Source of the DNA: a virus
Direction: 5' to 3' (one strand)
Length of the DNA stretch: 64,000 nucleotides
IMG/VR virus record: IMGVR_UViG_3300045450_000145
Location: 32,001-96,000 of that record
Under the pieces are notes generated by a model. It made no database searches and was not told where the DNA came from. It worked only from the letters and a program-made list of their open reading frames with translations. Shown here piece after piece: positions 202 to 45,029 of the stretch (positions are counted from its first letter, which is position 1; each line of letters begins with the position of its first letter). The position numbers and the translations under genes are program-made.

Positions 202-646
202 TGCTTTAGGTTTTCAAGATAACATTAGTCTTTCAGTTTATGAAAAGCTGCTTTTTCTGGAGTTTGAGGCAAAGAATCACTATTTCGATGCCAAGAAAAC
301 ACTTGCAAGCATTACTCCTGATAAGGAGGATGAAGGTATTGCATTCTTTGCACAAGATTCAATGGATCGGTGGGAATACACAGCACAAACTTTGCAATTA
401 ATGAATCTTCGTATTGGCGCATGGCATCTCAATAAGACTATGAATTTCTGCTCACAGTGCGAAAGACCAACTAATATTAAGGATTTTCTTCTGTTTTGCG
501 AAGGTCAGGTTAAGGCAGCGTATGCTTCTGTTTATGATGCCGAAGATAATGGAGACTATGAAATTAAGTGTCACAACTACATCTTTACTAAGTTCTACGA
601 GTGGCGAGATTTTTCATTCTTTGCGCAAGGCCTACTAAATGATTAA
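188..646 (+). CDS. hypothetical protein
   Basis: 152-aa ORF overlapping both neighbours; no recognisable motif. Confidence 0.7.
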   Translation: MTQPNALGFQDNISLSVYEKLLFLEFEAKNHYFDAKKTLASITPDKEDEGIAFFAQDSMDRWEYTAQTLQLMNLRIGAWHLNKTMNFCSQCERPTNIKDFLLFCEGQVKAAYASVYDAEDNGDYEIKCHNYIFTKFYEWRDFSFFAQGLLND

Positions 647-1668: not shown

Positions 1669-1686
1669 CCGTGAAAGGTATTTAAA

Positions 1687-3651: not shown

Positions 3652-3660
3652 TTAGAAAAT

Positions 3661-3693
3661 GGGTCTCTGCTAAATAAAATTATGCAGAGACCC
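3661..3693. repeat. 10-bp perfect inverted repeat with 13-nt AT-rich loop
   Basis: GGGTCTCTGC (3661-3670) / GCAGAGACCC (3684-3693); loop TAAATAAAATTAT; no U-tract on the + strand. Confidence 0.8.
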
Positions 3694-3695
3694 AG

Positions 3696-3980
3696 ATGAA
3701 GGATAACATGGCTAAAAATTTACCTGTTTCAATTGCGAAGAAGGTTGCTGATGATAATAACTTGAAACAGGTTATTATACTCGGGTGGGACGGTGAAACT
3801 ACCCACGTCATAACATACGGTCAAACTATCAATGACTGTGATCAAGCTGCACAGGGTGGTAACAAGCTCAAGAGAGTATTGGGGTGGCCCGAATCATTGA
3901 ATGCAAATCCACCACGGGTAGAATCCTTATTAAAGAAAATTGCAGCGCTCGAGGTGCAGCTAAAGGAATTAAATGGCTGA
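3696..3980 (+). CDS. hypothetical protein inserted between yeaG and yeaH homologues
   Basis: 94-aa ORF overlapping the yeaH start; start may be 3708. Confidence 0.7.
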   Translation: MKDNMAKNLPVSIAKKVADDNNLKQVIILGWDGETTHVITYGQTINDCDQAAQGGNKLKRVLGWPESLNANPPRVESLLKKIAALEVQLKELNG

Positions 3981-5286: not shown

Positions 5287-5287
5287 T

Positions 5288-6805
5288 ATGACAGAAAAAC
5301 TGTGGATAACAAGTAAGACGGACTGGACGCCAGAGTTAATTAAGCAGTCATACGAGGAAATTGAAAAGATTGCTTTAGAGGAAATGGAACTAGAGGTTTA
5401 TCCAAACTCAGTCGAAATTATTTCAGCTGAGCAAATGCTAGACGCATATTCAAGCATCGGCTTGCCAATCCATTACAATCACTGGTCATTTGGTAAGGAC
5501 TTTGAATCTAACTTTAACTCATACTCAAAAGGGCGTCAAGGTCTAGCGTATGAGATTGTAATTAATACTAATCCCTGTATTAGTTACCTAATGGAAGAAA
5601 ACAACATGATGATGCAGGCGATGGTGATTGCCCACGCTGCCTTCGGTCATAACGCCGTATTTAAAAATAATGAATGTTTTAAGCAGTGGACTGAAGCATC
5701 TAACATTATTGACTACATGATGTTTGCACGCGATTACATTCGACAGTGCGAAGAGCGTTATGGTGAAAGCGAAGTTGAGAAGGTATTAGATGCGGCTCAC
5801 GCCCTCGCCCCACATGGCGTGGACAAATTTAGTCGAAAGCATACCCCTCGACTCTCAGAAGAAGCCCGGTTGCAAAAGCTAATTAGTGAAGAGGATGCTA
5901 AACAGAAAGAGTTAGATATTATTCTAAAGCGCACCTCATACAAGGATGTCGACTTAAGTGAGCATGATGATGGGGATAATCCTGAAGAAGAGGAAAATCT
6001 GCTTTATTTTATCATGAAGAAATCTCCATCTCTACCTCAATGGAAAAGAGAAATTATTCGCATTGTCTATAAGATCAATCAGTATTTCTACCCACAGGGC
6101 CAAACTAAAAACCTAAATGAAGGTTTTGCATCCTTTACGCATTATTATATTATGACTCGAATGGAAGAGAAGGGCATGATATCTCCAGATGCATTTATGT
6201 ATTTCTTAGAGAGCCACAGTGGAGTTATCTTCCAGCCTGAATACCACCGCAGATATTATGGTGGCATTAATCCATACGCCCTAGGCTTTGCTATCTTCCA
6301 AGATATCAAGCGCATTTGCGATAATCCAACTGAAGAAGATAAGTATTGGTTTCCTCACCTCATTGGTAAGAGATGGCAGGATGCAGTTAAGGATGCTGCA
6401 TTTGAATACCGTGATGACAGCTTTGTAAGTCAATATTTGTCACCTAAGGTAATTAGAGACCTTAAACTATTTTCAGTTAATATTTTAGTTACTGAAGGTA
6501 AACTTGAAGATGCGGCAGTAATTCAAACTGATGCAGATGGCAATACTCACTCGGCTAGAGCAATTGTAAGTGACATTCACGATGAAGTTGGGTATAGAAA
6601 CATTCGTAATAACCTAGCTAAGAGCTTTGAACGTATTAATTTCGTTCCTCAAATTATGGTTGTTGGGGCAGACTTAGATGGTGACCGCGCACTTAAGCTA
6701 AAGTATAATTCATACATGGGAAGAACTTTAGATGTAGAGGACGCTATACTGGTTACATCCTATATTGATTCTCTCTGGGGCTATCAAGTAGATTTAGACT
6801 GTTAA
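5288..6805 (+). CDS. ycgB: SpoVR/YcgB-family protein
   Basis: HWSFGK, GLAYEIVINTNPCISYLME.N, IAHAAFGHN..FKNN, QTK..NEGFASF.H, NPYALGF; start moved to MTEKLW at 5288 just after the yeaH stop. Confidence 0.95.
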   Translation: MTEKLWITSKTDWTPELIKQSYEEIEKIALEEMELEVYPNSVEIISAEQMLDAYSSIGLPIHYNHWSFGKDFESNFNSYSKGRQGLAYEIVINTNPCISYLMEENNMMMQAMVIAHAAFGHNAVFKNNECFKQWTEASNIIDYMMFARDYIRQCEERYGESEVEKVLDAAHALAPHGVDKFSRKHTPRLSEEARLQKLISEEDAKQKELDIILKRTSYKDVDLSEHDDGDNPEEEENLLYFIMKKSPSLPQWKREIIRIVYKINQYFYPQGQTKNLNEGFASFTHYYIMTRMEEKGMISPDAFMYFLESHSGVIFQPEYHRRYYGGINPYALGFAIFQDIKRICDNPTEEDKYWFPHLIGKRWQDAVKDAAFEYRDDSFVSQYLSPKVIRDLKLFSVNILVTEGKLEDAAVIQTDADGNTHSARAIVSDIHDEVGYRNIRNNLAKSFERINFVPQIMVVGADLDGDRALKLKYNSYMGRTLDVEDAILVTSYIDSLWGYQVDLDC

Positions 6806-18960: not shown

Positions 18961-19905
18961 ATGGAACAAACTGGACACCTCAACAACGACTTTCGGCTGT
19001 GCTTGAAGCACCTCATGGATCATGGCTATACTGCTAATCCTCGTGGCACGACTAGCAAGGAAATCCTTAACTACAACATCACCCTAACTAATCCTCGTAA
19101 CCGCGTCATTACCTTCAAGGACCGCAACGTCAAGACAGAATACTTGATGGGTGAACTAATCTGGTATACTAGCGGCGAAGACACCCTTGACGGCATTCTT
19201 CCTTACTCCAAGTTTTGGGCTAACATTACTAACTCTGGCAGTGAGCATCAGTACGATGCCAATACTGTCAATTCCAACTATGGCAACCGTCTCTTCGGCG
19301 TTACTAAGTTGGCTGCGTTCTCGGGCATGAATCAGTGGAACAATACTATCAATATCTTGAAGAATGACAAGGATTCTCGTCAAGCGCTGATGAACATTCA
19401 CGTGCCATCTGACCGCCATACCGGCAACAAGGACGTACCATGCACCATCGCGCTCCAGTGGTTCATTCGTGACAACAAGCTATCTCTCATTACCTACATG
19501 CGGTCTAATGACATCATCTTAGGTTTTACCAACGATGTCTTCCAATTTACCATGCTACAGGAAGCAATGATGGTAAATCTTCGTGAGTTCTATCCTGACC
19601 TTGAACTTGGCTACTACTATCACAACGCAGGATCGATGCACGTCTATGATCGTCACTTCGAGATGGCAGACAAGATCATCAATGCTGAGAATGCATTTGA
19701 CATGAACATGATTCCGATGGATAAGTTCAACTTGGATATTGTTAATGCTCTAGTGAGTGTCGAGTGTGAGTGGCGTAACAATCACGTTAAGTTCGAGAAC
19801 ACCGTTGATTGGGAGCAACTAACTCCATACTGGCAGCTGTGCATGAAGGCCTTCATGGAGAAAGATGAAGAAGCAATGCACCAAATCTTCGGCATTGAGG
19901 ACTAA
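18961..19905 (+). CDS. thymidylate-synthase-fold dCMP hydroxymethylase/hydroxylase (T4 gp42-like)
   Basis: DSRQA, catalytic VPCT, MRSNDIILGFTNDVFQF with Asp at the position where dUMP-specific ThyA has Asn, AGSMHVY..H; a canonical ThyA exists separately at 44088. Confidence 0.85.
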   Translation: MEQTGHLNNDFRLCLKHLMDHGYTANPRGTTSKEILNYNITLTNPRNRVITFKDRNVKTEYLMGELIWYTSGEDTLDGILPYSKFWANITNSGSEHQYDANTVNSNYGNRLFGVTKLAAFSGMNQWNNTINILKNDKDSRQALMNIHVPSDRHTGNKDVPCTIALQWFIRDNKLSLITYMRSNDIILGFTNDVFQFTMLQEAMMVNLREFYPDLELGYYYHNAGSMHVYDRHFEMADKIINAENAFDMNMIPMDKFNLDIVNALVSVECEWRNNHVKFENTVDWEQLTPYWQLCMKAFMEKDEEAMHQIFGIED

Positions 19906-19913
19906 AAATAATG

Positions 19914-19951
19914 TATAATGGCAAGTTAGGGATAAAGCTTCCTAACTTGCC
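19914..19951 (+). promoter_or_regulatory. TATAAT followed immediately by an 11-bp inverted repeat
   Basis: TATAAT 19914-19919; GGCAAGTTAGG (19920-19930) / CCTAACTTGCC (19941-19951); SD AAGGA just after. Confidence 0.55.
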
Positions 19952-19963
19952 AAAAGGAACTAA

Positions 19964-21715
19964 ATGCGATACGAAAAACAAATTCTTGAAGCCTACGAGC
20001 GAATCGGCTTTAAGCCACGAGATAAGCAAGTTGAGCACATTAATAAGATTCTGATCGCGTTTCTTGACGAACAATTCAAGAACGTTATTTTGTCTGCGCC
20101 GACAGGTACTGGTAAATCCATCATCGGGGCGGTGGTGGCCGATGTAGTTCAAACCATCAAGAATCCTGGCGTAAATCGCGGCGCATCATTTCTGCTCACT
20201 GCGACTAACGTATTAGCTGAGCAATACCACGAAACTTTCGTTGACGACGATGCCCCACACGACGAGGTCTTCCACATCATCAAGGGCGCCGGCAACTATG
20301 AATGTGCCGCATTGTCTGAACCACAAGAGCCACAATCTGCCGAAAATTGCGCCATCATGCTTTTCAAGAAGAGCGGCATGGATGACATTATCAGCCAATA
20401 TTGTGATAGCTGTGAATTCCAATTCAGCCGGAAGATGAAGGAAAAGGCGCGGCACCTAATCACAAACTATTCATACTATTTCGTTGACCGCATGTACTCG
20501 CAGCACCCAATGGAGAAGCGAGCAGTTTGTGTCTTCGACGAAGCCCACCTATTGAATGACCTTTTCACTGAGCATAATGCAATTTACTTTAGTGAGAAAA
20601 GGCTTCACACAATGGCTGACGAGATTTCTGAAAGCTTAAAGTTGGGCAACACTGACATCTATAAAAAGATCAAATTAATTAAGGACCACCTCGTCGCCAA
20701 AAAGATCACCGAAGATAACTACAAGACATATCTGAAGACGCTACTTGAAGTGTACAATGACATCTCAGATGCAGCAAAGAAGGAAGCAGAGCGTAACGTC
20801 CGCTCTCAAAGCACCTACTTGAAATTAAACAAGCTCAGCAAGAAGTACTTCAATTTTGGGTGCAAAATTGATGACCTATTCATCTTTGACTATCCTCACG
20901 TCTTTGAATTCAAGGAAAAGGATGTCAAGAAGGGCAATAACGACAACGAGATTTCTGTCAAGCCCATCTTTATTGGTGAGATGTTCCAAGCGCTAGATAA
21001 TGCCGATCACAACTTGCTAATGAGCGCCACCATCAGTGAGCAGTATGCGAAGAGAACCATGGAGTTACCTGGCACTACGAAGCACATTCGGCTTGAGCCA
21101 CAATTCCCACCTGCAAACAAGAAGGTAATCTTCTTCAAGACGCAAAACTTGAACTACACCTCGATGAAAGACCCAGTTACGACCAAGAAACTGTGTGCGA
21201 CGACTTATCAGATTGTGAAGCACCATACTGACAAGGGAGAGCGCGGCATTATCTTGGCTCCGTCCTTCAATGTAACTCAGTCTTTGGCTGAAACTTTGCG
21301 CATGATGGGAAATGAGTATAAAGTGTTTGAGCATGAACGTGGTCAGAAGCTGGCCGACATTCTTGAGGACTTTAAGGCTTATACTGGAAAGCCTGCGGTA
21401 TTGCTGACTCCATCAGGCTTCGAAGGTGTTGACTTGCCAGGTGACTTGAGTAGATTCCAGATCATTGTCAAGATGCCATTCGCCTCACTTGGCGATAAGC
21501 GAATTGCGCACATTTTAAGTGTATATCCTGACATTTATGGTCTAACTGCGCTAATGAAAGTCGTGCAAGGTGCAGGCCGGTCGGTAAGATCACATGCAGA
21601 CTGGGCGACCACTTACATTCTAGATAACGCAGCTCAGCGATCTTGGGCCGCCAAAAACAATGAATGGACTGACGAATTTTCCACCAGTTACACTTCACAA
21701 TTAACGCAGGATTAA
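19964..21715 (+). CDS. DinG/XPD-family SF2 helicase
   Basis: APTGTGKS, four spaced Cys (YEC..ENC..CDSC; possible Fe-S), DEAH, EGVDLPGD..R..IIVKMPF, QGAGRSVRS..DW. Confidence 0.9.
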   Translation: MRYEKQILEAYERIGFKPRDKQVEHINKILIAFLDEQFKNVILSAPTGTGKSIIGAVVADVVQTIKNPGVNRGASFLLTATNVLAEQYHETFVDDDAPHDEVFHIIKGAGNYECAALSEPQEPQSAENCAIMLFKKSGMDDIISQYCDSCEFQFSRKMKEKARHLITNYSYYFVDRMYSQHPMEKRAVCVFDEAHLLNDLFTEHNAIYFSEKRLHTMADEISESLKLGNTDIYKKIKLIKDHLVAKKITEDNYKTYLKTLLEVYNDISDAAKKEAERNVRSQSTYLKLNKLSKKYFNFGCKIDDLFIFDYPHVFEFKEKDVKKGNNDNEISVKPIFIGEMFQALDNADHNLLMSATISEQYAKRTMELPGTTKHIRLEPQFPPANKKVIFFKTQNLNYTSMKDPVTTKKLCATTYQIVKHHTDKGERGIILAPSFNVTQSLAETLRMMGNEYKVFEHERGQKLADILEDFKAYTGKPAVLLTPSGFEGVDLPGDLSRFQIIVKMPFASLGDKRIAHILSVYPDIYGLTALMKVVQGAGRSVRSHADWATTYILDNAAQRSWAAKNNEWTDEFSTSYTSQLTQD

Positions 21716-21734
21716 AAATTGTTATAATTCACTT

Positions 21735-22913
21735 ATGAATTACAAACCCGACCCGTTGGCTTCCCGCCGAGACCAAGCAATTGACAAAGCACTCGGCATT
21801 AAGCGGCGAAAGAGAAACAAATCTATGAAAATTCGAAGAAAGGTTATGCCCATGTCACATCCAATCCGCTCATACGAAGCAATGGACGACACCCACGTTT
21901 ACAAGCAGGGTGTTCGTCGAGATGAAGTCGTGTTGGGAGTTTACGGCACCGAGGAATGGATCGTCAGCGACTTCGCTCGTGATCAATACCTAGCAGGCAG
22001 CCGGTGTGTTCAGATCGACAACATCTACATTGTCCCGGCCGGCTTCAATCTAGCTGAGTGGGTGATGAGTATTACTGACGACCAGTTTAACTTCTTCTCC
22101 TCAAACCGCGTGTTGATCCGCAGCACCAATGCTGATGGTAAACCAGACTGCCTAATTAAGGTAACTTCAGGTCGTGGTAAGATGGAAGTCGAGCTGCTAG
22201 GTGAAGTCAGCAAAGTCAAGCAGTGGGATGGTAAAATCAGCGCCATGTTCAAGAAGGCGCAAAACCTAATTCAGTGGGTTTACAGCCAACGTGGTGATGA
22301 AATTAGCGTGCCACTAAATTACCGCCCACCGGTCGAAGGCGCATATCCATTCCTCGATAAGCCAATCATGGACTACATCGATGACTACCTCAACAGCAGC
22401 GCCAGCATCTTGATCCTGCAAGGTCCACCAGGTGTGGGTAAAACCAGCTTAATTAAAGCGCTCATTCACCGTAGCGCCGCAAATGCTAAAGTTGCATACG
22501 ATGAGAAGGTGATGGCAGATGATAATCTCTTCGCGATGTGGATCGAAGATGACAGCCGCTTCATGGTTCTGGAAGATGCTGATGCATTCCTGAAAACTCG
22601 TGAAGATGGAAACACGATGATGCACAAGTTCCTCAACGTGTCAGATGGATTGATTTCAGCTGCAGATAAGAAGCTAGTTTTTTCCACCAACCTGGACAAC
22701 ATTAAGGACATCGATTCAGCTCTAATGCGACCAGGCCGGTGCTACGACGTTGTCGAAGCCCGCGCCCTAACTGCTAAGGAAGCTCAGAATGTATGCGATC
22801 TAAATCCGGACGCGAGAATGCGCAGCGACAAGTCATCATACACACTAGCTGAACTGTTCTCCGAGATTGGTTCGTCAGAAAAGAAAAAGGACCGCAGAAT
22901 CGGCTTCCTATGA
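21735..22913 (+). CDS. AAA+ ATPase
   Basis: LQGPPGVGKT, VLEDAD, LNVSDGL, FSTN, DSALMRPGRC; start codon uncertain. Confidence 0.9.
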   Translation: MNYKPDPLASRRDQAIDKALGIKRRKRNKSMKIRRKVMPMSHPIRSYEAMDDTHVYKQGVRRDEVVLGVYGTEEWIVSDFARDQYLAGSRCVQIDNIYIVPAGFNLAEWVMSITDDQFNFFSSNRVLIRSTNADGKPDCLIKVTSGRGKMEVELLGEVSKVKQWDGKISAMFKKAQNLIQWVYSQRGDEISVPLNYRPPVEGAYPFLDKPIMDYIDDYLNSSASILILQGPPGVGKTSLIKALIHRSAANAKVAYDEKVMADDNLFAMWIEDDSRFMVLEDADAFLKTREDGNTMMHKFLNVSDGLISAADKKLVFSTNLDNIKDIDSALMRPGRCYDVVEARALTAKEAQNVCDLNPDARMRSDKSSYTLAELFSEIGSSEKKKDRRIGFL

Positions 22914-23206
22914 TCTTGTCATCACGCACCAAGTCATACACCATGGGGGAGGGCGAATACGCTCTTCACCTTAATGCCGCACAACTTGAACTAATCACTG
23001 CATATTTGAATAATACCATCTTAGGTGATAGTGGTTATAAGGGTGCGGCATTTGATTTAGCACTAGCCATTGAGAAGAAAATGGGGCCTGATTTCTTCGA
23101 CCACAGCACCAAACAGGTAATGCTGTGTGTTAACACGTTAGACAAAAATGGTGTTATAATTGACACTATTGATGGATGTGATGCTGCAATTGAGGTAAAA
23201 GAATGA
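22910..23206 (+). CDS. hypothetical protein
   Basis: 98 aa, ATGA-coupled to both neighbours. Confidence 0.7.
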   Translation: MILSSRTKSYTMGEGEYALHLNAAQLELITAYLNNTILGDSGYKGAAFDLALAIEKKMGPDFFDHSTKQVMLCVNTLDKNGVIIDTIDGCDAAIEVKE

Positions 23207-23778
23207 AGAAGATTTTTGCAATCGAAGGGCTTGATCGACTTGGTAAGTCAACTTTAATTAAGAACATCCAACATAAGCTTGGCTTTTACCAAGTCATTCA
23301 TTTCTCTAAGCCTGTGGTTCTAGACTGCAAAATAGCTCTTTATAAAAATTTAGGTGGTGACACGCTAGAAAATCGGCGCGAAGCACTAGCAATGTATCAA
23401 AGCGAGTCTTTTTGTAATTCCTTTGTTTTAACTAAAAGTTGCGCTAATATTATCTTTGATAGGTGGCACCTAGGTGAAGCTGTATATGCAAAAAGGTATC
23501 GCGGGTATGATGGTGATTATGTCTTTTGTTTAGAACATATCGGCGATTTAGATAAAGTTAGGCTTATCTTACTAACTGAGAACTTTGACGTGAGCAACCA
23601 TTTCATTAGTGATGGTGAAAGCTTTGATGATAGCAAACGTCTAGAAGAGCAGGAAGACTTTAAACGTGCATTTAATATGTCGCGTATTAAAGACAAGCGA
23701 ATCATCTGCGTAACTGACCCACTGACGGGCTTATTCAGATCAGAAAAAGATATTTTAGCGGAAGCACTGGCGGATTAA
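23203..23778 (+). CDS. thymidylate-kinase-like dNMP kinase
   Basis: IFAIEGLDRLGKST P-loop; IIFDRWHLGE.VY. Confidence 0.85.
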   Translation: MKKIFAIEGLDRLGKSTLIKNIQHKLGFYQVIHFSKPVVLDCKIALYKNLGGDTLENRREALAMYQSESFCNSFVLTKSCANIIFDRWHLGEAVYAKRYRGYDGDYVFCLEHIGDLDKVRLILLTENFDVSNHFISDGESFDDSKRLEEQEDFKRAFNMSRIKDKRIICVTDPLTGLFRSEKDILAEALAD

Positions 23779-23919
23779 GATGAATGCTGATACCTGGATT
23801 TTACTTATTGCGGCGGTTGTAATTTTCGGGTTTATGTATTCGATGGAATACATCCGGCATGACGTCACTAAGCCGATTATTTTAGTCGTTTTAATTACAA
23901 TTTTGTTAATAATTTTGAT

Positions 23920-24429
23920 ATGAGCTTATTTGGAAAACAATTCGATAACTTAGATCGTGACGTGCAGTCAAAATATAGTCGCATGCTTCGTATTAGAATG
24001 CTAGCATATATGCAGGCGCTGCGACGAGGATATAATGCTGATATTAAGGCGGTAATTATCGGTGATACTCCCGGACCGGGTCGGCCTACTGACCCAAACT
24101 ATCACCACACGCCATTTTACTCAACTAAGAATTCTTCATTCTGGTTGAATAAACAACTCATTGAAAATGGTATCGATGAAAATAAGCTGCTTTGGTATAA
24201 TGCACAGCTTGCAGATAATTCATACCTCGATAAGGTACATGTTGAGGACGTGCTACGTTACAAGCCACAATTTATTGTATTAGGCGGCAATGCAGAAAAG
24301 TGGTTCAAAAAGGCATTACCTAATATGCCTTATGTTAAGGTGTACCATCCACAATTTGCTAAGCGCTTCAAATCTAAGGAACAATACCAACTCATTGAAG
24401 TATTAAAGAATGCCCTATCCTCCTCATGA
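23920..24429 (+). CDS. uracil-DNA-glycosylase-superfamily-like protein
   Basis: VIIGDTPG motif A-like, PF, N, FIVLGGNA and terminal YHPQ motif B-like. Confidence 0.6.
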   Translation: MSLFGKQFDNLDRDVQSKYSRMLRIRMLAYMQALRRGYNADIKAVIIGDTPGPGRPTDPNYHHTPFYSTKNSSFWLNKQLIENGIDENKLLWYNAQLADNSYLDKVHVEDVLRYKPQFIVLGGNAEKWFKKALPNMPYVKVYHPQFAKRFKSKEQYQLIEVLKNALSSS

Positions 24430-24643
24430 GCTGAATGAAAAGGAGCTGATGGAATATCTTACGAAGTATGAAAATGGTGAGATTATTCCAGCTCTAATTA
24501 TGCATCAAGTGTTCATGCTTGCAAGAGCCGAACTAAAAAACAAGGAGTGGTTAAATTACCTAACCACACGTCACATTTCACAATATGGAAAGCCTCTAGA
24601 TGATGTCGCAATTTACCCCAATGACCGAAGACGAGCTCGATGA
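24410..24643 (+). CDS. hypothetical protein
   Basis: 77 aa; a short similar ORF (MTEDELDEWIAYYNAG...) runs at 24621..24746. Confidence 0.55.
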   Translation: MPYPPHELNEKELMEYLTKYENGEIIPALIMHQVFMLARAELKNKEWLNYLTTRHISQYGKPLDDVAIYPNDRRRAR

Positions 24644-24742
24644 ATGGATTGCGTATTATAATGCCGGCAATGAGCTTGAAGATGACATCATGATAAAGTT
24701 ATTTGCCAGTTTGAAATATTACCTAAACAGGGAAAATGTAAA

Positions 24743-25030
24743 ATGAGAAGCATTGACATTCCACCAGGCGCGCTAAAGGTGACACGTTTTAAGCAATATG
24801 ACGATCACCCTGAAGTGTGGGAAGATTATATTTCAAGTTGTGGCGGTGACACTGGCACGGGTGAATACTATATTACAACCGCAGATGAAGAAGTCACATA
24901 CAATGGAGGAAACTCCTATACAACAAAAGAAATTAAGAGACACATTCGTGTTAATAAAGGTGACTATATTTTTGACATGCCAGGTGGCAATTATATTGTA
25001 GTGCCTAAACCGAGAAAATCTAGTAGTTAA
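24743..25030 (+). CDS. hypothetical protein
   Basis: 95 aa; VNKGDYI motif. Confidence 0.65.
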   Translation: MRSIDIPPGALKVTRFKQYDDHPEVWEDYISSCGGDTGTGEYYITTADEEVTYNGGNSYTTKEIKRHIRVNKGDYIFDMPGGNYIVVPKPRKSSS

Positions 25031-25049
25031 TTTAAGGTATTGATGAGGA

Positions 25050-25433
25050 TTGAGAATGGAAGAAAATTTTTCATATATGGAAGATGCCGCAGATAAAATT
25101 TGCCATGCTCTTATAAATGACCCTGATAGGTGGATAGTCTCAACATATTCTCTTTTGGATATTAAAACTAAAATTGACTACTGGATCGGCAGTCCTGAGG
25201 GATACATCATCAATACTTGGAATGGCAACTCAAATGATCGGGTTTTCTCGGATAAACAAGGAAAACGAATCTATGATGCCTTCCAAGCTATGCTAAAGTA
25301 CAAAGAAAGCGAGGCGCAGAAAAGGGTTTTAAAGGGGATGTGCTCTAATACTTCATTAAAAAATCTAGACGATTCTACTTCTAAGCAACCTAATAAAAAT
25401 AAAACTAGTTTTTGGAAGTGGCTCTGTAGCTAA
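25050..25433 (+). CDS. hypothetical protein
   Basis: about 125 aa; start codon uncertain (25050 or 25056). Confidence 0.65.
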   Translation: MRMEENFSYMEDAADKICHALINDPDRWIVSTYSLLDIKTKIDYWIGSPEGYIINTWNGNSNDRVFSDKQGKRIYDAFQAMLKYKESEAQKRVLKGMCSNTSLKNLDDSTSKQPNKNKTSFWKWLCS

Positions 25434-25469
25434 GATAAGTAAAAGAGTTAAACTCATTTAGGAATAAAG

Positions 25470-26348
25470 ATGAAAGTTTTGGTGACCGGCGGAAGCGGGT
25501 ATATTGGCGCTCATGTGTTGATGGAATTAACAAAGCGGGGCGTTAATTATATTGACGTTATTGATAAGAAATTAACTACGTCACCAAATGACATTTCTTA
25601 TTTGGCAACTAATACTTATGATGGAGACATCTTGAGCGAAGGCGCTCTCAGTATGCTAAGAAAGGACTACGATGCAATCATTCACCTTGCTGCGTATATT
25701 TCAGTTGAAGAGAGCGTGAAGGAGCCAGTCAAATATTGGCGCAATAATTTACTTTCAACGAGCAAAATCATTGATCATGCCAAAGGTGCACATTTAATAT
25801 TTGCATCTACAGGAACTGCATTTAACCCTAATAACCCTTATGCATATTCTAAGTTAGCGTGTGAGCTTGAAATTATTAAAAGGCTTAAAACCAACTATAC
25901 TAATTTTAGGTTCTATAATGTTAGTGGCATGCATTATGTTTTCAAGCCGACTGGTGAAGCTACTCACCTTATTCGACGGGCTGCAATGGCCGCTCGAGGT
26001 CTTATTCCAGAACTAACTGTATTTGGTAATGACTGGGATACTTTGGACGGCACGTGCGTTCGAGACTACATCCACGTTAAAGACCTAGCAGCATCTATCG
26101 TAAATGCGGTCTTTGAAGGTCCAGCTAACACCCCATATGAATGTTTAGGCACTGGTGATGGTTATACCGTAATGCAAGTTATTCAATCGATGAAAAAGGT
26201 AAGCAATACGGATTTCAAGGTTAATGTTTCTGACAAACGACCGGGCGATGTGGGAAGTATGATCTGCGATTCACAATACAAACACATCCGTTTGCATTAT
26301 AATTTAGATGACATGTGCAAAAGTGCATATGAAACTATTGGAGATTAA
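25470..26348 (+). CDS. galE: UDP-glucose 4-epimerase-like extended SDR
   Basis: VLVTGGSGYIG, IIHLAAYISVEESV..P.KY, YAYSK (YxxxK), FRFYNVSG, FGNDWDTLDGTCVRDYIHV.DLA. Confidence 0.92.
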   Translation: MKVLVTGGSGYIGAHVLMELTKRGVNYIDVIDKKLTTSPNDISYLATNTYDGDILSEGALSMLRKDYDAIIHLAAYISVEESVKEPVKYWRNNLLSTSKIIDHAKGAHLIFASTGTAFNPNNPYAYSKLACELEIIKRLKTNYTNFRFYNVSGMHYVFKPTGEATHLIRRAAMAARGLIPELTVFGNDWDTLDGTCVRDYIHVKDLAASIVNAVFEGPANTPYECLGTGDGYTVMQVIQSMKKVSNTDFKVNVSDKRPGDVGSMICDSQYKHIRLHYNLDDMCKSAYETIGD

Positions 26349-26350
26349 AA

Positions 26351-26542
26351 ATGATCAGAGCATTTTTTACAACATATGTGATTATTGGGATTATCACTTT
26401 AATTGGCTGGATTGCAAATTTAGTGCAACTAGTAAATGGGCCTTCAGTTCTGAAAGACCCTTCCAATGTTACTATCGTTAAAGTGATTGGCGTTCCAGTG
26501 CCGCCAATCGGCGTTATCATGGGTATTATTGGGCTATTTTAA
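26351..26542 (+). CDS. small membrane protein
   Basis: GWIANLVQL...IGVPVPPIGVIMG; two hydrophobic segments. Confidence 0.7.
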   Translation: MIRAFFTTYVIIGIITLIGWIANLVQLVNGPSVLKDPSNVTIVKVIGVPVPPIGVIMGIIGLF

Positions 26543-26544
26543 AA

Positions 26545-27702
26545 ATGAAAATTTTAATTACCGGTTTTAATAAAAATCAGTGCACTAGAAAATTTTACCT
26601 GCGGCAGCAGCTGAAAGTCGTGCCTTCACATTACAGCCTTTTTAACTGCTTGACTGCGATGGGGCATGAAGTTGAACAGCGCCAAGCGCAGATCGGTGAG
26701 GACCTCTCTGCATATGACGAGGTGATAGTCTTTATCGCAGGTCCTCGTCAACTTGTCGCAACTACAGTATTTGAGGGGCTATGGGCCATCTCACAGAAGC
26801 CAGATTGTATCTTGGCTTTTGATGACTGGCAAGTGCCTGACTTATTCAAGGGCGTCGCAAAGTGCCAAGATCAGAAGGAACTATTTGCGCAGTTTATCTT
26901 AGATGTGAATAAGAAAACCGTAGATCAGCTTGAGCCATATGCAGATGCATTTAGTAAGGCGATTGATGTAATTGTCAAGAAGCAGAATCGAATGCTAATA
27001 TCAGCATTTAAAACTGATCATCTAAATGACGACTCATTTGGTGCCCATCTGCTATTTGACAAAATTGATTACCCAAAAGATCGGCTCTTTGTCTATAATC
27101 CAAATCCATATCACCGCAATCGAAAATGGAATGATGAAGATCATGAGGGTGAAGAAGACCCAACATTTAAGCCATCTTTATTATCAGCAACTTGCAATCC
27201 TCGACCAGGCAAGGAACGACGATTTAACTTTGCAAGTTTAGTACAATCTAAAACGCAGAAGTGGTTGAAAAAGCAAGGCTATACTGGCAATCCAAAGAAT
27301 GACGAAGAAGGTGATATTGGTGGGTGGCCGGTTGATTTGTATGGTTCAAAGTCAGATACACAAAAACGTCTAACTGAAGATCAGATGGTGCAGGTGTTTA
27401 CGAGGGATTGGGCATGTCTAATGCCAGCATATGATCACGCTGGTTCTGGCTGGTGGAGAGCGCGCCCATTACAATGCGCGGATGCTCGTTGCATTTTGAT
27501 CGGAGATGACAAGGAACTTGCAGTGTATTATGGTAAAAACTACCCCCTATTTGGCTTAACTGCGAAGGATATTGTTGATATTTCCCTAAATGATTTGAAG
27601 GAAATTACTGACATTCAAGGTGCTCTTTTATATCAAAATCACCCGCTAGATAAACAAATCCAGCAAAAAGAAATTTCAGAAGTTTTAAAGGCGCCAAAAT
27701 GA
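26545..27702 (+). CDS. GT-B glycosyltransferase, probable DNA/base glycosyltransferase
   Basis: MKILITG N-terminal Rossmann strand, LAFDDWQ, C-terminal LMPAYDH.GSGWWRAR..Q.A....ILIGD; size and layout like T-even beta-glucosyltransferase-type enzymes; flanked by galE and glf. Confidence 0.65.
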   Translation: MKILITGFNKNQCTRKFYLRQQLKVVPSHYSLFNCLTAMGHEVEQRQAQIGEDLSAYDEVIVFIAGPRQLVATTVFEGLWAISQKPDCILAFDDWQVPDLFKGVAKCQDQKELFAQFILDVNKKTVDQLEPYADAFSKAIDVIVKKQNRMLISAFKTDHLNDDSFGAHLLFDKIDYPKDRLFVYNPNPYHRNRKWNDEDHEGEEDPTFKPSLLSATCNPRPGKERRFNFASLVQSKTQKWLKKQGYTGNPKNDEEGDIGGWPVDLYGSKSDTQKRLTEDQMVQVFTRDWACLMPAYDHAGSGWWRARPLQCADARCILIGDDKELAVYYGKNYPLFGLTAKDIVDISLNDLKEITDIQGALLYQNHPLDKQIQQKEISEVLKAPK

Positions 27703-28256
27703 ATGTATACACCCTCGAAGAGATGAATGACTTACCGGCAGGCACATGCATTCAAGATGCAAAGCTAAAATTAATTAATAATATTGAATACTATGAAGGT
27801 ACAGTATCATTTCGAGGGTGCTCATTTGAAACTTCAGTCTTAGCGTCAATGTGTGAAGAACGTAATAACACGCCTCATAAAGAACTACTAGAAAAAATGA
27901 GTGTCGCTAGAACGAATAGCGCAATAAAAACATTAAAAGACCTTTCACTTAAGAACAAACGCGAGCGGTTAACAACCTACATTGTAATTAATAACACTGG
28001 CTTGGGCGGTTTACCTATCGGCACAAAACTTATCGACTGCGTGCAAGATACCAGCGATCAAAATTTTATTGTTGGTAAAGCTGAACACACTGGCAGCACG
28101 TGGTGTATTGCAAAATCTAAAGTTCGGCCGATTGCAAATGACACAGCGCAGGAAAATATTTCAGTTCTTCTTAAGCAGGTCATTATTGACTTGGCAAAGC
28201 TACAAGCTGATATACAATATATTGCTGATTTAAATCGCTCATATTATGGAAATTAA
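27699..28256 (+). CDS. hypothetical protein
   Basis: 185 aa, coupled to the GT gene; possible internal duplication (LPAGTCIQD / LPIGTKLIDC). Confidence 0.65.
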   Translation: MNVYTLEEMNDLPAGTCIQDAKLKLINNIEYYEGTVSFRGCSFETSVLASMCEERNNTPHKELLEKMSVARTNSAIKTLKDLSLKNKRERLTTYIVINNTGLGGLPIGTKLIDCVQDTSDQNFIVGKAEHTGSTWCIAKSKVRPIANDTAQENISVLLKQVIIDLAKLQADIQYIADLNRSYYGN

Positions 28257-28265
28257 AGGATAAAG

Positions 28266-29525
28266 ATGAATATTTTAGTTGTGGGAGCGGGCTTCTCCGG
28301 TGCAGTTGTGGCCCGTGAACTTGCAGAGGCAGGGCACAAAGTTACAGTAATTGATAAACGTGATCACATTGCAGGCAATGCATTTGATTACGTAAATGAA
28401 CACGGCATTCGAGTTCACAAATATGGGCCCCACCTGTGGCACACAAACAGCGAAGAGGCGCATGCTTGGTTTAGCAAGTTCACAGACTGGCTTCCATACC
28501 GTCACAAGGTGCAAGCATTACTGCCTAATGGTAAGTATACTCCACTACCTATCAATAACCAAACTATTTTGGATATTTTTGGTGAGGAATTCAGTAAGTT
28601 TGTTGATTGCGGCAATCCTAATACCCAAAAATATTGGGGCTATCAGGATGAAGAGGCTGATAACTTGTATTATTACAAGCAGCTCGCATTTAATGACTTC
28701 ATGATGATAAAGAGCGTAGATCATGAAGAAGTCACTAACTCACGTGAGCATGTAGAAGTTTCAGTCGGTAGAGAGCTGTGTGAGCTATTCTTTGCGCCAT
28801 ACACAAAGAAAATGTGGGGTATGGACTTGTCAGAATTGCCAGCTTCTGTTGCTGCGCGTATTCCTACAAATCCTAGCTTCCAAAACGAGTACTTCCCAAA
28901 AGATAAGTTCCAGGGAATGCCGGCAGAAGGTTATACTAAAGCATTTGAAAAAATCTTTGATCACCCAAACATTAAGGTTTTACTTTCTACTGGTAGAGAG
29001 CAATTCTTAGGTGGTAATTTCTATGAAGATCACCGTCGATCTGCTGAAAAGTTCGATCATATCTTCACAGGCGAACCGATCGATACGTATTTTGACTGCA
29101 AGCTAGGTGAACTACCATGGCGTTCCATTAAGTGCAATGTTTACTCAGTGCCATACCCATTAGTATTGCCAGAGTCAGTAGTTAATTTTACGCATGATGG
29201 TCCATATACTCGCATTACAGAGTGGAAGCAACTACCTGGTCATGGTGAGAACCCTTATTGGACTACTTTAACTGCAGAAGAGCCATGCGATTACAAGGAT
29301 AATAGAAATGAGCGCTATTATCCAGTCAAGACCTCGCAGCGCGATGATCCACACCGCAAGTTATATCATGAATATGTAGAATTGGCAGAGAAGGAAGAGA
29401 ATGTCACCTTCATCGGCCGGTGTGGCACATATCAATATTTAGATATGTGGATTGTCATCATGCAGACCCTAAAGATCGTTGAACAATTTAAGGCCCAATT
29501 TAAGGGTCAATTGCCTGTAGTATGA
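28266..29525 (+). CDS. glf: UDP-galactopyranose mutase (flavoenzyme)
   Basis: VVGAGFSG FAD motif, HIAGNAFD, HKYGPHLWHT, FFAPYTKKMWG, QGMP..GY, RYYP, GRCGTYQYLDM. Confidence 0.95.
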   Translation: MNILVVGAGFSGAVVARELAEAGHKVTVIDKRDHIAGNAFDYVNEHGIRVHKYGPHLWHTNSEEAHAWFSKFTDWLPYRHKVQALLPNGKYTPLPINNQTILDIFGEEFSKFVDCGNPNTQKYWGYQDEEADNLYYYKQLAFNDFMMIKSVDHEEVTNSREHVEVSVGRELCELFFAPYTKKMWGMDLSELPASVAARIPTNPSFQNEYFPKDKFQGMPAEGYTKAFEKIFDHPNIKVLLSTGREQFLGGNFYEDHRRSAEKFDHIFTGEPIDTYFDCKLGELPWRSIKCNVYSVPYPLVLPESVVNFTHDGPYTRITEWKQLPGHGENPYWTTLTAEEPCDYKDNRNERYYPVKTSQRDDPHRKLYHEYVELAEKEENVTFIGRCGTYQYLDMWIVIMQTLKIVEQFKAQFKGQLPVV

Positions 29526-29552
29526 TATAATTCCTGACATAGGAGATAAACT

Positions 29553-29858
29553 ATGTCAGGAATTTTTGACGCAGACGTAAAAAGGCGAGCGTTAGTTCGC
29601 AAGTGGCACTCACAACGCTACGGCACAGATATTAACGAGTGGGAAGTCATTGAGCTCAATACCTGCAATAATCAACCATTAAAACCTGGTGATGTGCCAG
29701 ATATTGTGTTAGGGAGTCGCAATCATGATGACGATGTGTGGCTCTATATTACTGGCAACTTTGACTATAAGCAGAAGCGTTGGGTTGCTGATGAGCTCTG
29801 CGCGCAACTTAACATGATCGAAAACCTTCAAGCCGAGAAATTTAAAGATGAACTTTAA
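29553..29858 (+). CDS. hypothetical protein
   Basis: SD AGGAGA; extended -10 TGATATAAT upstream. Confidence 0.7.
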   Translation: MSGIFDADVKRRALVRKWHSQRYGTDINEWEVIELNTCNNQPLKPGDVPDIVLGSRNHDDDVWLYITGNFDYKQKRWVADELCAQLNMIENLQAEKFKDEL

Positions 29859-30474
29859 TAAACCAACCCTTATTACCTTGACTGGGCCTACTTGCTCTGG
29901 TAAGTCACACATGCTCACAAAGCTCATTCAGGAAGGATTTACCCGAATTGTTTCCACTACCACCCGTGAATGTCGATCTGGTGAGAAGGAAGGAGTAGAT
30001 TATTTCTACATCAGTGAAGGTGAATCAAATGAGATGGAATTAAATGGCGAGTTTGCAGAACTGGTTACGTTCCTAGGGGTTAGGTATGGTGTTACAAACC
30101 AAGAAATGGCTGGTAAAATGTCGCAAGACACTCCACCAGTTGTAATTCTAGAGCCATCAGGTTTAGAGATGTACAAACATTATTGTAATGCTCACGGTTA
30201 TGGCATCTACTCGATTTATGTTCATACACCAGAAGACACACGAATTACTAGAATTAAGCAGCGTGCTTACAATGACTTGACATTTGGTAAAGCGAACTTT
30301 AAAACCGTAGATGTACTTGCATCACGCATCATCTCGGCGGTGGGTGTAGAGCGCACTTGGATTAGCCAACATAAGTATGATTTAATCGTTGATGGCACAA
30401 ACGAGCAGAAGGCCTTACAAGACATCTATCTTGGGATTGAGCAGCGCAATAAGAGGCAATCAATTTACTCATAA
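29848..30474 (+). CDS. gmk: guanylate-kinase-like NMP kinase
   Basis: LTGPTCSGKS, VSTTTRECRSGEKEGVDYFYIS, YG. Confidence 0.85.
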   Translation: MNFNKPTLITLTGPTCSGKSHMLTKLIQEGFTRIVSTTTRECRSGEKEGVDYFYISEGESNEMELNGEFAELVTFLGVRYGVTNQEMAGKMSQDTPPVVILEPSGLEMYKHYCNAHGYGIYSIYVHTPEDTRITRIKQRAYNDLTFGKANFKTVDVLASRIISAVGVERTWISQHKYDLIVDGTNEQKALQDIYLGIEQRNKRQSIYS

Positions 30475-30505
30475 ATAAAACCTTTGATGACAAGGGAACG
30501 ATGAC

Positions 30506-30964
30506 ATGATTAATTCCTCCTTAGGAGAACTACAACATACCAAGCGCGTCGGCTTCACGTGCTCCTGCTTTGATCTATTCCATGCAGGCCACGTGTTAAT
30601 GCTAAGAGAGGCACGGAGCAAGTGCGACTATCTACTTGTTGGAATGCAAACTGACCCAACGATTGACAGGCCAGAAAAGAACAAGCCAGTGCAAAGCGTC
30701 TTTGAGCGCTATGTTCAGCTTGACGCATGTAAGTACGTCGATGAAGTTGTGATGTATGCAACTGAAAAAGACCTAAAAGATATTTTACTTGCATATCCAA
30801 TCGATGTTAGAATTTTAGGCGATGAGTATGAAGGTAAGCCATTTACCGGCTTTGACATCGACATGGAATTCTACTTTAATTCCCGTAAGCATAGCTTCTC
30901 AACCAGCGAACTTAGACAGCGGATCGCTGAAATTGAAAGGCAGAAATTAGAGAAGATGAAATGA
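30506..30964 (+). CDS. cytidylyltransferase (TagD/glycerol-3-phosphate cytidylyltransferase-like)
   Basis: FDLFHAGH (HxGH), LLVG.QTDP, KPVQSVFER, KYVDEV, RKHSFSTS. Confidence 0.88.
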   Translation: MINSSLGELQHTKRVGFTCSCFDLFHAGHVLMLREARSKCDYLLVGMQTDPTIDRPEKNKPVQSVFERYVQLDACKYVDEVVMYATEKDLKDILLAYPIDVRILGDEYEGKPFTGFDIDMEFYFNSRKHSFSTSELRQRIAEIERQKLEKMK

Positions 30965-42096: not shown

Positions 42097-43006
42097 TCCA
42101 TACAAGACTTTAGGTGTGCCTGACAACTGCAGCAAGGATGAAGCTCGAAAGGCATATCGAAAGCTTGCAATGCAGCATCACCCTGACAGGGGAGGAGACG
42201 AGGCTGTATTTAAGGAGTTGAAGCTGGCATGGGAAAGCATTGACACTGGCTGGAAGCAACCCCAGCAAAGCGCATATAGTAAACCTAAGCGCAGCACTTC
42301 ATTCAGTGAAGAGTTTAATAAGACAAATCAGGCAAAGCACAATGGGGAGCATGCGGCTTTTAAACGTAAGTTCTACAACACTGACGACATCAACGACATC
42401 TTCAATGACTTTAAGACCAACACTGGCCCAAAGTCAACTCGCTTTAATCAAAATGAGGGATTTTACCAAGAATATGGTGCGAAGGTCTCAATGAGGCAGG
42501 CATTCTTAGGGTTTCACTTCCAAATTCCTAAGATTGTGAATATTAACGGCATGACAACAAATAATATCTTTGTTCCAGGTGGTGCATTCCCGGGTCATAG
42601 CATGATAGTTGCGCCTGGCGTCAAGGTTAATGTGCAATTCACTGACACTAATTTTAAGATGCGAGGGTTAGATAGTGAATTTGACAGTCCATTTACTGCA
42701 TCACTTCTAGCTGGAGATATCGAGGTAGAGAAGCATATTGATGCAATAGACTTAATCACCGGTGCGTGGATTACTATACAGGACTTTTTAGGCGAGGACC
42801 TACGTGTTAGAATCCCAGAAGGATTTGACCCCCAACGTCGGCTTAAGATCGCGAATAAAGGCTATGCAAGTTGGAGCGTCGACACTGGCCCAAACACCGA
42901 ATTTAGGCAGCACATGTTTGTAAAGGTAATTCCTGTCTTTAACAAGCCATCTAATATAGAGCGTGATAAAATTATCAACTTATACAAGTCAATCCAGGAA
43001 AAATGA
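42089..43006 (+). CDS. DnaJ/CbpA-like J-domain protein
   Basis: NPYKTLGV...KAYRKLAMQHHPDRGGD (HPD); C-terminal GDI.....ID.IDLITG...LRVRIPEG..LKI..KG resembles the DnaJ C domain; no Zn finger. Confidence 0.88.
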   Translation: MNNPYKTLGVPDNCSKDEARKAYRKLAMQHHPDRGGDEAVFKELKLAWESIDTGWKQPQQSAYSKPKRSTSFSEEFNKTNQAKHNGEHAAFKRKFYNTDDINDIFNDFKTNTGPKSTRFNQNEGFYQEYGAKVSMRQAFLGFHFQIPKIVNINGMTTNNIFVPGGAFPGHSMIVAPGVKVNVQFTDTNFKMRGLDSEFDSPFTASLLAGDIEVEKHIDAIDLITGAWITIQDFLGEDLRVRIPEGFDPQRRLKIANKGYASWSVDTGPNTEFRQHMFVKVIPVFNKPSNIERDKIINLYKSIQEK

Positions 43007-43539
43007 TCTTTTACGAACCTCCATACCGAGGTCTCAGCAAACTGATCTCCGGCGGGCAGTGCGGTGCTGACTTTGGCGGGGTGGACGCTGGCTTACATTT
43101 CGGAATTAAAACTGGTGGGCACGTGCCATATGGCTGGAGGACCCACTTTGGGCCAAAGCCAGAATTGGCTTTGCATGGCTTAGTTGAACACCCATCAGCC
43201 GCCTATCAGCCACGTACGAGGGTAAATGTAAAGCACGCCGATGCGACTGCCATTATTGGTACTAACCTACAATCCCCAGGGTGCAAGTTAACTTTAAAGT
43301 ACTGCAAAGAACTAAACAAGCCCGCGTTGCTCTTTCCTATACCGGGAATATTCGATGAGAACTTGCTAAATGAATATACACTGCAACTCACTAATGATAT
43401 AATTGAAAGACAAATTACCACCCTTAACGTGGCTGGAAATCGTGATAAGTACGGTACATTGCACTATGATTTCACCTTCAGCCTAATTTTGAAAATGCTT
43501 TTATTGCTAGAAGAACAAAATCTAGTAGTTAGGAAATAA
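43003..43539 (+). CDS. SLOG-superfamily protein ('putative molybdenum carrier' type)
   Basis: KLISGGQCGADFGG, TGG..P.GW, Y..RT..NV..ADAT, G..LT, LNVAGNR. Confidence 0.8.
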   Translation: MIFYEPPYRGLSKLISGGQCGADFGGVDAGLHFGIKTGGHVPYGWRTHFGPKPELALHGLVEHPSAAYQPRTRVNVKHADATAIIGTNLQSPGCKLTLKYCKELNKPALLFPIPGIFDENLLNEYTLQLTNDIIERQITTLNVAGNRDKYGTLHYDFTFSLILKMLLLLEEQNLVVRK

Positions 43540-43540
43540 G

Positions 43541-44098
43541 ATGAATTTAGAACAGAAATCTAAGATGCTGTCGTACTTGCTCAGACATAAACCTGAGAAT
43601 GCAAACTTATCTATTGACAGTCAAGGTTATGTGCCTGTGGATGAGCTAGTATTAAATGCTAAATTTACTATTAATGAGCTCAAGCAAATCGTCGCAGAGG
43701 ACAGCAAGCAACGCTACTCATTTGCAAATGGCTTTACCCTTATCAGAGCCAATCAGGGTCATACTACTTCTAAAGTAAAGATGCAATTCAACATTGCTTT
43801 CCCTCCTCTGGTGCTTTACCATGGCACTTCATATAAGTCATATAATGACATTATGAAAGAGGGTCTGATTCCAATGTCACGCCACCACGTTCACCTCTCT
43901 GAAAGCCTAGATGTTGCAAAGCAGGTAGCAACTCGTAGATTCAAACGCCCAAGTTCCAACCTGCCATCATACATTATTTTGAAGATTGACTCTGGCCAAA
44001 TGCGCGCAGATGGGTTAAAATTCTACAAAAGCGACAATGACGTTTGGCTTGTCGACCATGTTCCACCACAATATATTAGCATACATAATGAATTTTAA
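43541..44098 (+). CDS. kptA: RNA 2'-phosphotransferase Tpt1/KptA
   Basis: SK.LSYLLRH, K.RY, IRANQGH, LYHGT, RHHVHLS, N.VWL...VPP. Confidence 0.93.
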   Translation: MNLEQKSKMLSYLLRHKPENANLSIDSQGYVPVDELVLNAKFTINELKQIVAEDSKQRYSFANGFTLIRANQGHTTSKVKMQFNIAFPPLVLYHGTSYKSYNDIMKEGLIPMSRHHVHLSESLDVAKQVATRRFKRPSSNLPSYIILKIDSGQMRADGLKFYKSDNDVWLVDHVPPQYISIHNEF

Positions 44099-45029
44099 AA
44101 CAATCTGGCAAGGCGTTAAAAAAGCATTCCGCAGTGACACCTGGGAATACCAATACATCGACTTGGTACGTGACATCCTGGAAAATGGCGATGACCGCAT
44201 GGATCGAACTGGCACTGGCACGCGTTCAGTCTTTGGCCGGCAGCTTGACATTCCACTCTACAATGGCTTTCCAGCGGTTACCGGTAAAAAGCTTGCTTGG
44301 CGTTCCGTTTTAACTGAAGATTTATTTTTTGTTGAAGGTTCTAATGATGAACGGCGGCTGGCTGAGCTTCTGCACGGCACGCGTGACCCATTGAAGAGAA
44401 CCATCTGGACAGATAACGCGGAAGCAAATTATTGGAAGCCTAAAGCCAAGTTTGAAGGTGACCTAGGTCGGGTTTATGGCGTTCAATGGCGCCACTGGAA
44501 CACATATCAGCCTGTGGATGGTAGCAAAGATGGCGACCTGTTTACGCCGGGTAAAGAAATTGATCAGCTTGCCGAAGCAATCAATAAGATTAAAAATAAC
44601 CCAGCCGACAGGCGAATTATCGTCAGTGCCTGGAACGTTGGTGAACTAGATCAAATGGCTTTACCACCATGTCACATGCTATTCCAACTCTACGTTGAGA
44701 ATGGTAGACTTTCCTGCCAAATGTATCAACGGTCGGTTGACACGATGCTAGGCTTGCCATTCAATATTGCATCTTATGCTTTGCTTACTCACATGATTGC
44801 TAAAGTTTGTAATCTAAAAGTTGGTCGGCTAATTATGTGCTTGGGTGATGTTCATATTTACAAGGACCATCTTGATGGAGCTCGCGAGCAAATTAAGCGT
44901 AAGCCATACGATCCACCAGCTTTAATTATCGAGGGCAATCAACAAACAATTGATGATTTCAAGGAATCAGATTTCTGCTTGAGTAACTATACTCACCACA
45001 AGAAAATCGAAATGAAGATGAGCACTTAA
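44088..45029 (+). CDS. thyA: thymidylate synthase (canonical, dUMP-specific)
   Basis: DRTGTGT.S.FG, LGRVYG.QWR, MALPPCH, QRSVDTMLGLPFNIASY (Asn specificity residue), GDVHIY..H; start reassigned to 44088. Confidence 0.95.
   Translation: MNFKTIWQGVKKAFRSDTWEYQYIDLVRDILENGDDRMDRTGTGTRSVFGRQLDIPLYNGFPAVTGKKLAWRSVLTEDLFFVEGSNDERRLAELLHGTRDPLKRTIWTDNAEANYWKPKAKFEGDLGRVYGVQWRHWNTYQPVDGSKDGDLFTPGKEIDQLAEAINKIKNNPADRRIIVSAWNVGELDQMALPPCHMLFQLYVENGRLSCQMYQRSVDTMLGLPFNIASYALLTHMIAKVCNLKVGRLIMCLGDVHIYKDHLDGAREQIKRKPYDPPALIIEGNQQTIDDFKESDFCLSNYTHHKKIEMKMST

Follow-up and report, generated by a model that had tools for sequence, protein, structure and literature searches.

The system discussed here lies in a window of 64,000 bases (bases 32001-96000 of the 183,546-base virus contig IMGVR_UViG_3300045450_000145, hereafter G000), within a block of genes at window positions 18961-30964. 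Predicted from these genes, post-replicative galactofuranosylation of 5-hydroxymethylcytosine (5hmC) is the best reading of the block, to which we would assign a probability of roughly two in three. We also consider it likely that galactofuranosyl (Galf)-5hmC is made by a virus-specific furanosyltransferase family with the fold of beta-glucosyltransferase (BGT), swappable with BGT itself and widely distributed, from jumbo phages of soil and freshwater and T4-like phages of the sea to Aeromonas and Erwinia phages in culture. The direct basis for this proposal is formed by gene identities, active-site signatures, the fold of the glycosyltransferase (GT), gene co-occurrence and the exchange with BGT. 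The DNA polymerase of G000 is closest to that of the Ralstonia jumbo phage RsoM2USA (47% identity), the completeness of the contig was estimated at 51%, and contigs bearing close relatives of the GT measure 330-376 kb. The source appears to be an uncultured jumbo phage related to RsoM2USA, with the contig representing about half of its genome.

The proposed pathway would be a two-stage cytosine hypermodification of the T4 type in which the sugar has been swapped. According to this proposal, a thymidylate synthase (TS) paralogue would convert dCMP into 5-hydroxymethyl-dCMP (hm-dCMP), and a thymidylate-kinase (TMK)-like kinase, together with a host or phage nucleoside diphosphate kinase, would turn it into hm-dCTP, replacing dCTP during replication. 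This replacement would probably be aided by a MazG/PRA-PH-type dCTPase encoded in the genome half beyond the contig. GalE would convert host UDP-glucose (UDP-Glc) into UDP-galactopyranose (UDP-Galp), which Glf would contract to UDP-galactofuranose (UDP-Galf). The BGT-fold transferase would then attach Galf to the hydroxymethyl group of the base within DNA, and the resulting galactofuranosyl-5hmC would protect the genome against restriction and against nucleases adapted to glucosyl-hmC. The initial annotation had proposed that the phage makes its own UDP-furanose donor and transfers it to modified cytosine, and this proposal is supported and can be narrowed.

The GT itself (385 aa; 26545-27702, + strand; phrog_14998) found nothing in Pfam or NCBIfam and was placed by fold search alone. 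Its AlphaFold model (pLDDT 89.7) retrieved T4 BGT first in both Foldseek and VIA-align, in the latter at ranks 1-4, with Z 17.7 and rmsd 3.9 over 304 aligned residues, the next family following at Z 15.8. Residues D94, R305 and R307 are 97-100% conserved (D94 97%) over 107 diverse members of the family. D94 closes a strand matching that of BGT and R307 aligns with BGT R269; from its place, D94 may be a base like D100 of BGT. The family comprises 729 clusters at 90% identity, and the three Atlas clusters closest to the GT are unnamed and 93-100% viral. The protein is predicted to be an hmC-DNA furanosyltransferase of the BGT fold.

The initial annotation had suggested profile searches for co-occurrence of GT, Glf and gp42-like genes across phages, and here the expected association was found. 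Among the loci fetched with the GT, which are partly redundant but come from both jumbo and marine T4-like phages, Glf was present in 135 of the 137 with enough flank and TS in 73 of 74, while GalE was found in 49. The association of GT, Glf and TS is far beyond chance, and adjacency of GT and Glf was seen in jumbo, marine T4-like, Straboviridae and actinophage lineages. Cultured carriers include Aeromonas phage 25 and its kin, Erwinia phages FBB1 and C48C1, and actinophage DSL-LC01; Aeromonas phage 25 and Erwinia FBB1 carry gp42 and the Glf-GT pair without BGT. In the Gordonia phage Phendrix, the GT and a TS with D177 are present without Glf. Mycobacteriales hosts make their own UDP-Galf, and the lack of Glf in Phendrix fits a host of this kind. 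Homologues of the GT were also seen in Providencia phages PSTRCR_121 and 127, and DSL-LC01 has a second GT-family paralogue after glf. Of 163 loci, 117 have a C5 cytosine-methylase-like gene (PF00145) close to the GT and 116 have a dCMP deaminase there, mostly marine loci (L018:7000-8199 and its kin); a methylase in this position would be odd if cytosine were fully replaced.

The best sign that the cassette does the job of BGT with another sugar is the exchange of the two at one slot. In a search based on TS only, and thus free of GT bias, 28 loci were obtained, in which the clade keeps the order TS, helicase, AAA ATPase (most loci), kinase, slot and guanylate-kinase-like kinase. True BGT (PF09198) occupies the slot in nine loci, with D100, R191, R195, R269 and E272 present in all nine and E22 in eight, while the GT-Glf pair, with or without GalE, occupies it in five loci (two of them near-identical) and in the window. 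No locus of this TS-anchored set held BGT together with GT-Glf, and the BGT-carrying genomes, including three that are at least 90% complete and RsoM2USA, had neither GT nor Glf genome-wide. One genome with an empty slot bears the GT-Glf pair elsewhere. RsoM2USA, the nearest cultured phage, combines the same TS clade with BGT, and the paper describing it holds no data on DNA modification. Erwinia phage Cronus has no BGT at the motA slot of FBB1, and no positional swap was seen there. Further variants of the slot were also observed. A complete 360-kb relative (G014, locus L329) has a dCMP-type TS with no BGT in the slot and no GT or Glf anywhere; its hmC may be bare, or its transferase may have escaped recognition. 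The BGT homologue at L330:17202-20864 precedes a CofD-like protein of 620 aa (PF01933) and an ORF resembling nucleotidyltransferases, an arrangement that may be a third sugar variant of this slot.

In regard to the base, the TS paralogue (314 aa; 18961-19905, + strand; PF00303, E 4.5e-25) reads DVPC...MRSNDIILGFTND, representing D143, C146, D169 and D177 in E. coli ThyA numbering, with its own D158, C161, D184 and D192 corresponding to L143D, C146, D169 and N177D of E. coli ThyA. Lee et al. 2026 (PMC13326640) reported that N177D selects dCMP, that an acid at 143 accompanies non-methyl products, and that D169N marks 5-hydroxy-dCMP synthases. The window TS has the catalytic cysteine (C161), the N177D change (D192) and the acid at 143 (D158) of gp42-type enzymes, and lacks the D169N mark of RB69 gp48 and RL38JI gp216. 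The motif RSND occurs in T4 gp42, in the window TS and in 84 of 84 distinct TS neighbours of the GT, with the signature D143/D169/D177 throughout, while RL38J1 gp216 and Rgz1 gp33 have RSQN. Since D169 is kept, the rule of Lee et al. would make the window TS an hm-dCMP synthase and not a 5-hydroxy-dCMP synthase. Where the initial annotation allowed either 5-hydroxymethyl- or 5-hydroxycytosine, we infer from these residues that hm-dCMP is made and that the base is 5hmC, leaving only the hydroxymethyl part of that claim. The best match of the window TS in the PDB is MilA (E 2.7e-32), and the protein falls in a MilA-like clade of the deoxy type, with R140/S182 where MilA has K133/A176; this change to R/S turns the preference of MilA to dCMP (PMC5175136). 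A separate canonical ThyA is encoded at 44037-45029, and the TS at 18961-19905 is therefore a dedicated paralogue. Two TS clades, T4-like and MilA-like, accompany the GT-Glf cassette, even between close relatives. The candidate hm-dCMP kinase is the TMK-like nucleotide kinase at 23203-23778 (+ strand; weak PF02223, phrog_761), whose family profile matches Rgz1 gp31 (2.5e-8) and RL38J1 gp214 (5.6e-6), kinases of arabinose and galactose cytosine clusters, respectively. A PRA-PH/MazG-type dCTPase candidate is present in both near-complete relatives, and no genome searched yielded a dCTPase of the T4 gp56 family (PF08761).

The sugar donor is indicated by two enzymes. Glf (419 aa; 28266-29525, + strand; PF03275, E 3e-54) matches UDP-galactopyranose mutase structures in the PDB (E 1e-74), with a TIGR00031 score of 289, slightly below the cut-off of 304. 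The mutase active site is kept across 97 Glf homologues, and the window protein keeps the FAD motif together with what we take to be the active-site residues H56, H59, W184, R198, Y209, R316, Y351, Y391 and D393. The GalE-like UDP-hexose 4-epimerase (25470-26348, + strand) has TIGR01179 as its best family (E 1e-61; score 208, below the cut-off of 262), finds GalE also in the PDB, and has the GxxGxxG motif and the S/T-Y-K triad (G7, T114, Y124, K128). GalE is optional among relatives and is not beside the GT in L005, L006, L008, L010 and L096. The simplest donor route would lead from UDP-Glc over UDP-Galp to UDP-Galf, although mutase paralogues are active on other sugars. The initial annotation had left the sugar as Galf or arabinofuranose (Araf) and had seen no arabinose-5-phosphate isomerase (SIS); the latter holds for the 51% of the genome covered by G000 and for two relatives, G001 and G002, that are 97-100% complete. 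Galf is favoured over Araf because this isomerase is missing from all three and UDP-glucose dehydrogenase is missing from G000 and its nearest relative G001, narrowing the earlier pair of sugars.

Several observations weigh against the galactofuranosylation of 5hmC. Every chemical step is deduced from the genes, as are the sugar with its anomer and how far the DNA would be modified. BGT leads the other GT-B enzymes by about 2 Z units at 12% identity, profile similarity of the GT to BGT is weak (no Pfam match and an hhalign probability of 10-18%, placing it outside PF09198/GT63), and E22 and E272 of BGT have no clear counterpart in it. The exclusivity of BGT and GT-Glf corresponds to only 2-3 changes on the DinG helicase tree (like that of Glf, a quick tree), and therefore to few exchange events and not many. 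The locus closest by this tree, L294 (16244-18664), has GalE and Glf, with the GT not found in a 71%-complete genome. No dCTPase was found in the approximately 51% of the genome covered by G000. This contig also avoids RGATCY and GATATC, with 3 AGATCT sites against 19 expected, 4 GGATCC against 10 and 21 GATATC against 40, which suggests that protection is incomplete and that a host nuclease still acts on these sites; such avoidance was not seen in the relative G001. Outside the window, the contig encodes another glycosyltransferase, a GT4 that is linked to glf in bacteria, together with a GH1-like partner (contig 20298-22630; L180:2799-5131). Finally, Morganella phage Rgz1 has a member of the GT family in an arabinose/5-hydroxycytosine cluster with a D169N synthase, and because of this location the family may also elongate sugars or use Araf, Rgz1 probably having a separate priming transferase, gp32, beside TS. 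The member in question, gp40 (L165:7001-8068), lies between arabinose-5-phosphate isomerase and an NTP transferase and is a candidate further arabinosyltransferase.

Among the alternatives, the one that survives best, although we regard it as unlikely, retains the same hmC pathway with a furanose other than galactose (L-arabinofuranose from UDP-xylose or UDP-arabinopyranose, N-acetylgalactosamine in furanose form (GalfNAc), or another), or with a di- or oligosaccharide as the product. Besides the Rgz1 member, it is favoured by the presence of UDP-glucose dehydrogenase in two relatives (G002 and G005), by the shortened substrate loop of GalE with Met at the gatekeeper position, and by a second SDR family that takes the place of GalE in 35 of 63 neighbours. 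The absence of SIS and of the dehydrogenase from the genomes named above speaks against it, and the optional nature of GalE fits a donor that the host could supply, namely UDP-Gal. It is also opposed by the residues H59 and A197 of Glf, which differ from the Arg pair of the C. jejuni GalNAc mutase.

It is improbable that the GT acts on hmC in DNA and transfers a pyranose (Glc or Galp), with Glf serving another role, for example with the bacterial-type GT4 at contig 21461-22630. The BGT-like fold would agree with this, as would the linkage of GT4 to glf in bacteria (36 of 67 loci) and its presence on G000, and L294 with Glf and no GT. However, GT4 is missing from the complete relative G002, in which GT and Glf are kept, the window Glf groups in its tree with GT-linked Glfs of phages and apart from GT4-linked bacterial ones, and GT and Glf were gained and lost jointly. 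A GH1-like gene was also seen in 24 of the 67 bacterial GT4 loci, and the pair of GH1-like gene and GT4 is present in G001 and absent from G002. We give just as little credence to the possibility that GalE, GT and Glf serve to decorate proteins of the virion or the envelope of the host, for instance in superinfection exclusion, leaving hmC bare. Galf is normally an envelope sugar. Jumbo phages bear gene clusters for surface polysaccharides (PMC7824862), and some relatives (G014) have TS without a recognised GT. Opposed to this are the exchange at one slot with a true DNA BGT, the best structural match being BGT, the nearly constant TS neighbour and the predominantly viral make-up of the GT family. 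A 5-hydroxycytosine base of the kind found in RB69 and RL38JI is very improbable: the kinase is homologous to those of the Rgz1 and RL38J1 clusters and Glf is shared with RL38JI, yet D169 is kept in the window and in all TS neighbours, and RL38J1 gp215, gp151 and gp237 do not match the profile of the window GT family (gp215 E 49).

As for the layout, all eight genes named in the initial annotation were found on the + strand, but the block is not a compact operon, being interrupted by a DinG-like helicase (19964-21715, + strand), an AAA ATPase (21735-22913, + strand) and seven small ORFs. TS lies upstream of the GT at a distance of 6.6 kb, and GalE, a 63-aa ORF, the GT, a 185-aa ORF and Glf follow each other with gaps of 2, 2, -4 and 9 bases. 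The helicase and the ATPase are synteny markers of the clade, outside the pathway, and are missing from marine GT-Glf loci. A promoter and terminator scan gave signals near shuffled levels and was not used.

The remaining genes of the block are accessory or conserved neighbours. The UDG-fold protein (23920-24429, + strand; PF03167, E 0.001) gave a model whose top 16 matches are proteins of the UDG superfamily and one phage polymerase (Z 5.6-8.1). It is found with BGT alleles as well as with GT-Glf alleles, and is an accessory tied to the hmC locus and not to the sugar; as a guess, it may clear deaminated bases. It fails to align with the UDG-like neighbours of marine loci. In DSL-LC01 (L187:3089-4084), a TMK-like kinase fused to a UDG-like domain adjoins TS. 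The guanylate-kinase-like kinase (29848-30474, + strand; PF00625) occurs in BGT, GT-Glf and empty-slot loci alike, and is a conserved neighbour of the clade, neither specific to the sugar cassette nor core, while the HIGH-family cytidylyltransferase-like protein (30506-30964, + strand; PF01467, phrog_7878) accompanies the GT in no more than 21 of 74 loci and is an accessory. Both had been listed in the initial annotation among the genes of the block, but neither belongs to its core. A heptose route (RfaE domain II and HldD) was considered and rejected: the cytidylyltransferase stayed far short of the thresholds for RfaE and TagD, and the fit of the epimerase to HldD (E 2e-20) was much poorer than that to GalE (E 1e-61). 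Elsewhere in the window, DHFR is followed by a PrkA/YeaG gene (PF08298) and two genes resembling its YeaH and SpoVR partners (639-6805), and a YpsA SLOG gene, a Tpt1/KptA RNA 2'-phosphotransferase and the canonical ThyA lie consecutively at 43003-45029.

If the proposal is true, phage DNA would contain a new base, a large unnamed viral GT family would gain a function, and a single locus would be seen to alternate in phages between glucose and galactofuranose. This would be a natural pair for comparing the nucleases (GmrSD/BrxU, PvuRts1I, CRISPR) blocked by either sugar, and an hmC-specific furanosyltransferase could serve as a labelling tool beside T4 BGT. The claim is testable at once, because cultured phages (Aeromonas phage 25, Aes012 and Erwinia FBB1) bear the pair. 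A literature search, with most subscription papers outside its scope, found no report of Galf on hmC. The novelty would lie in the Galf-hmC variant, as combining hmC with a sugar is an old principle and phage cytosine bearing Galf has been proposed before.

Compared with known systems, the genes point to a real and conserved system working like the T4 pathway of gp42 and BGT, with a transferase outside the BGT family. T4 glucosylates hmC, while RB69 and DLP3 place Araf on 5-hydroxycytosine. The T-even system (T4 gp42, gp1, gp56 and BGT; GT63, PF09198, PDB 1QKJ/1NZD) shares the dCMP hydroxymethylase signature and the BGT-like GT-B fold, and relatives of the window phage bear true BGT in the GT slot; in contrast, the window combines a TS of the MilA-like clade with a GT outside PF09198, encodes the donor-making GalE and Glf, and has a kinase that is TMK-like and not gp1. 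The closest solved relative of the TS, the CMP hydroxymethylase MilA (PDB 5B6D), differs at its ribose residues K133/A176, which are R/S in the window. The RB69/DLP3 pathway is similar in having a furanose on cytosine and a TMK-like kinase, with Rgz1 gp40 found in such a cluster, whereas the window phage lacks arabinose-5-phosphate isomerase and would use hmC and a furanose obtained by ring contraction. In subclass II of the epimerase-dependent GTs of Pyle et al. (10.1101/2023.12.21.572611), an epimerase and a GT also place non-glucose sugars on 5hmC, which in that case arises within DNA through a methylase and a TET-type dioxygenase, and the main text includes neither a mutase nor a furanose. 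The nearest precedent is the Rhizobium phage RL38JI (Pootjesviridae), which has galactose on 5-hydroxycytosine and for which phage Glf was proposed as the source of UDP-Galf for DNA cytosine (Lee et al. 2026, PMC13326640); the initial annotation had named no characterised Galf-cytosine in phage DNA. Its kinase is homologous to that of the window, while its synthase carries D169N, its gp215, gp151 and gp237 are not in the window GT family, and its glf is unlinked and falls, on a long branch of unsure placement, outside the Glf group of the window.

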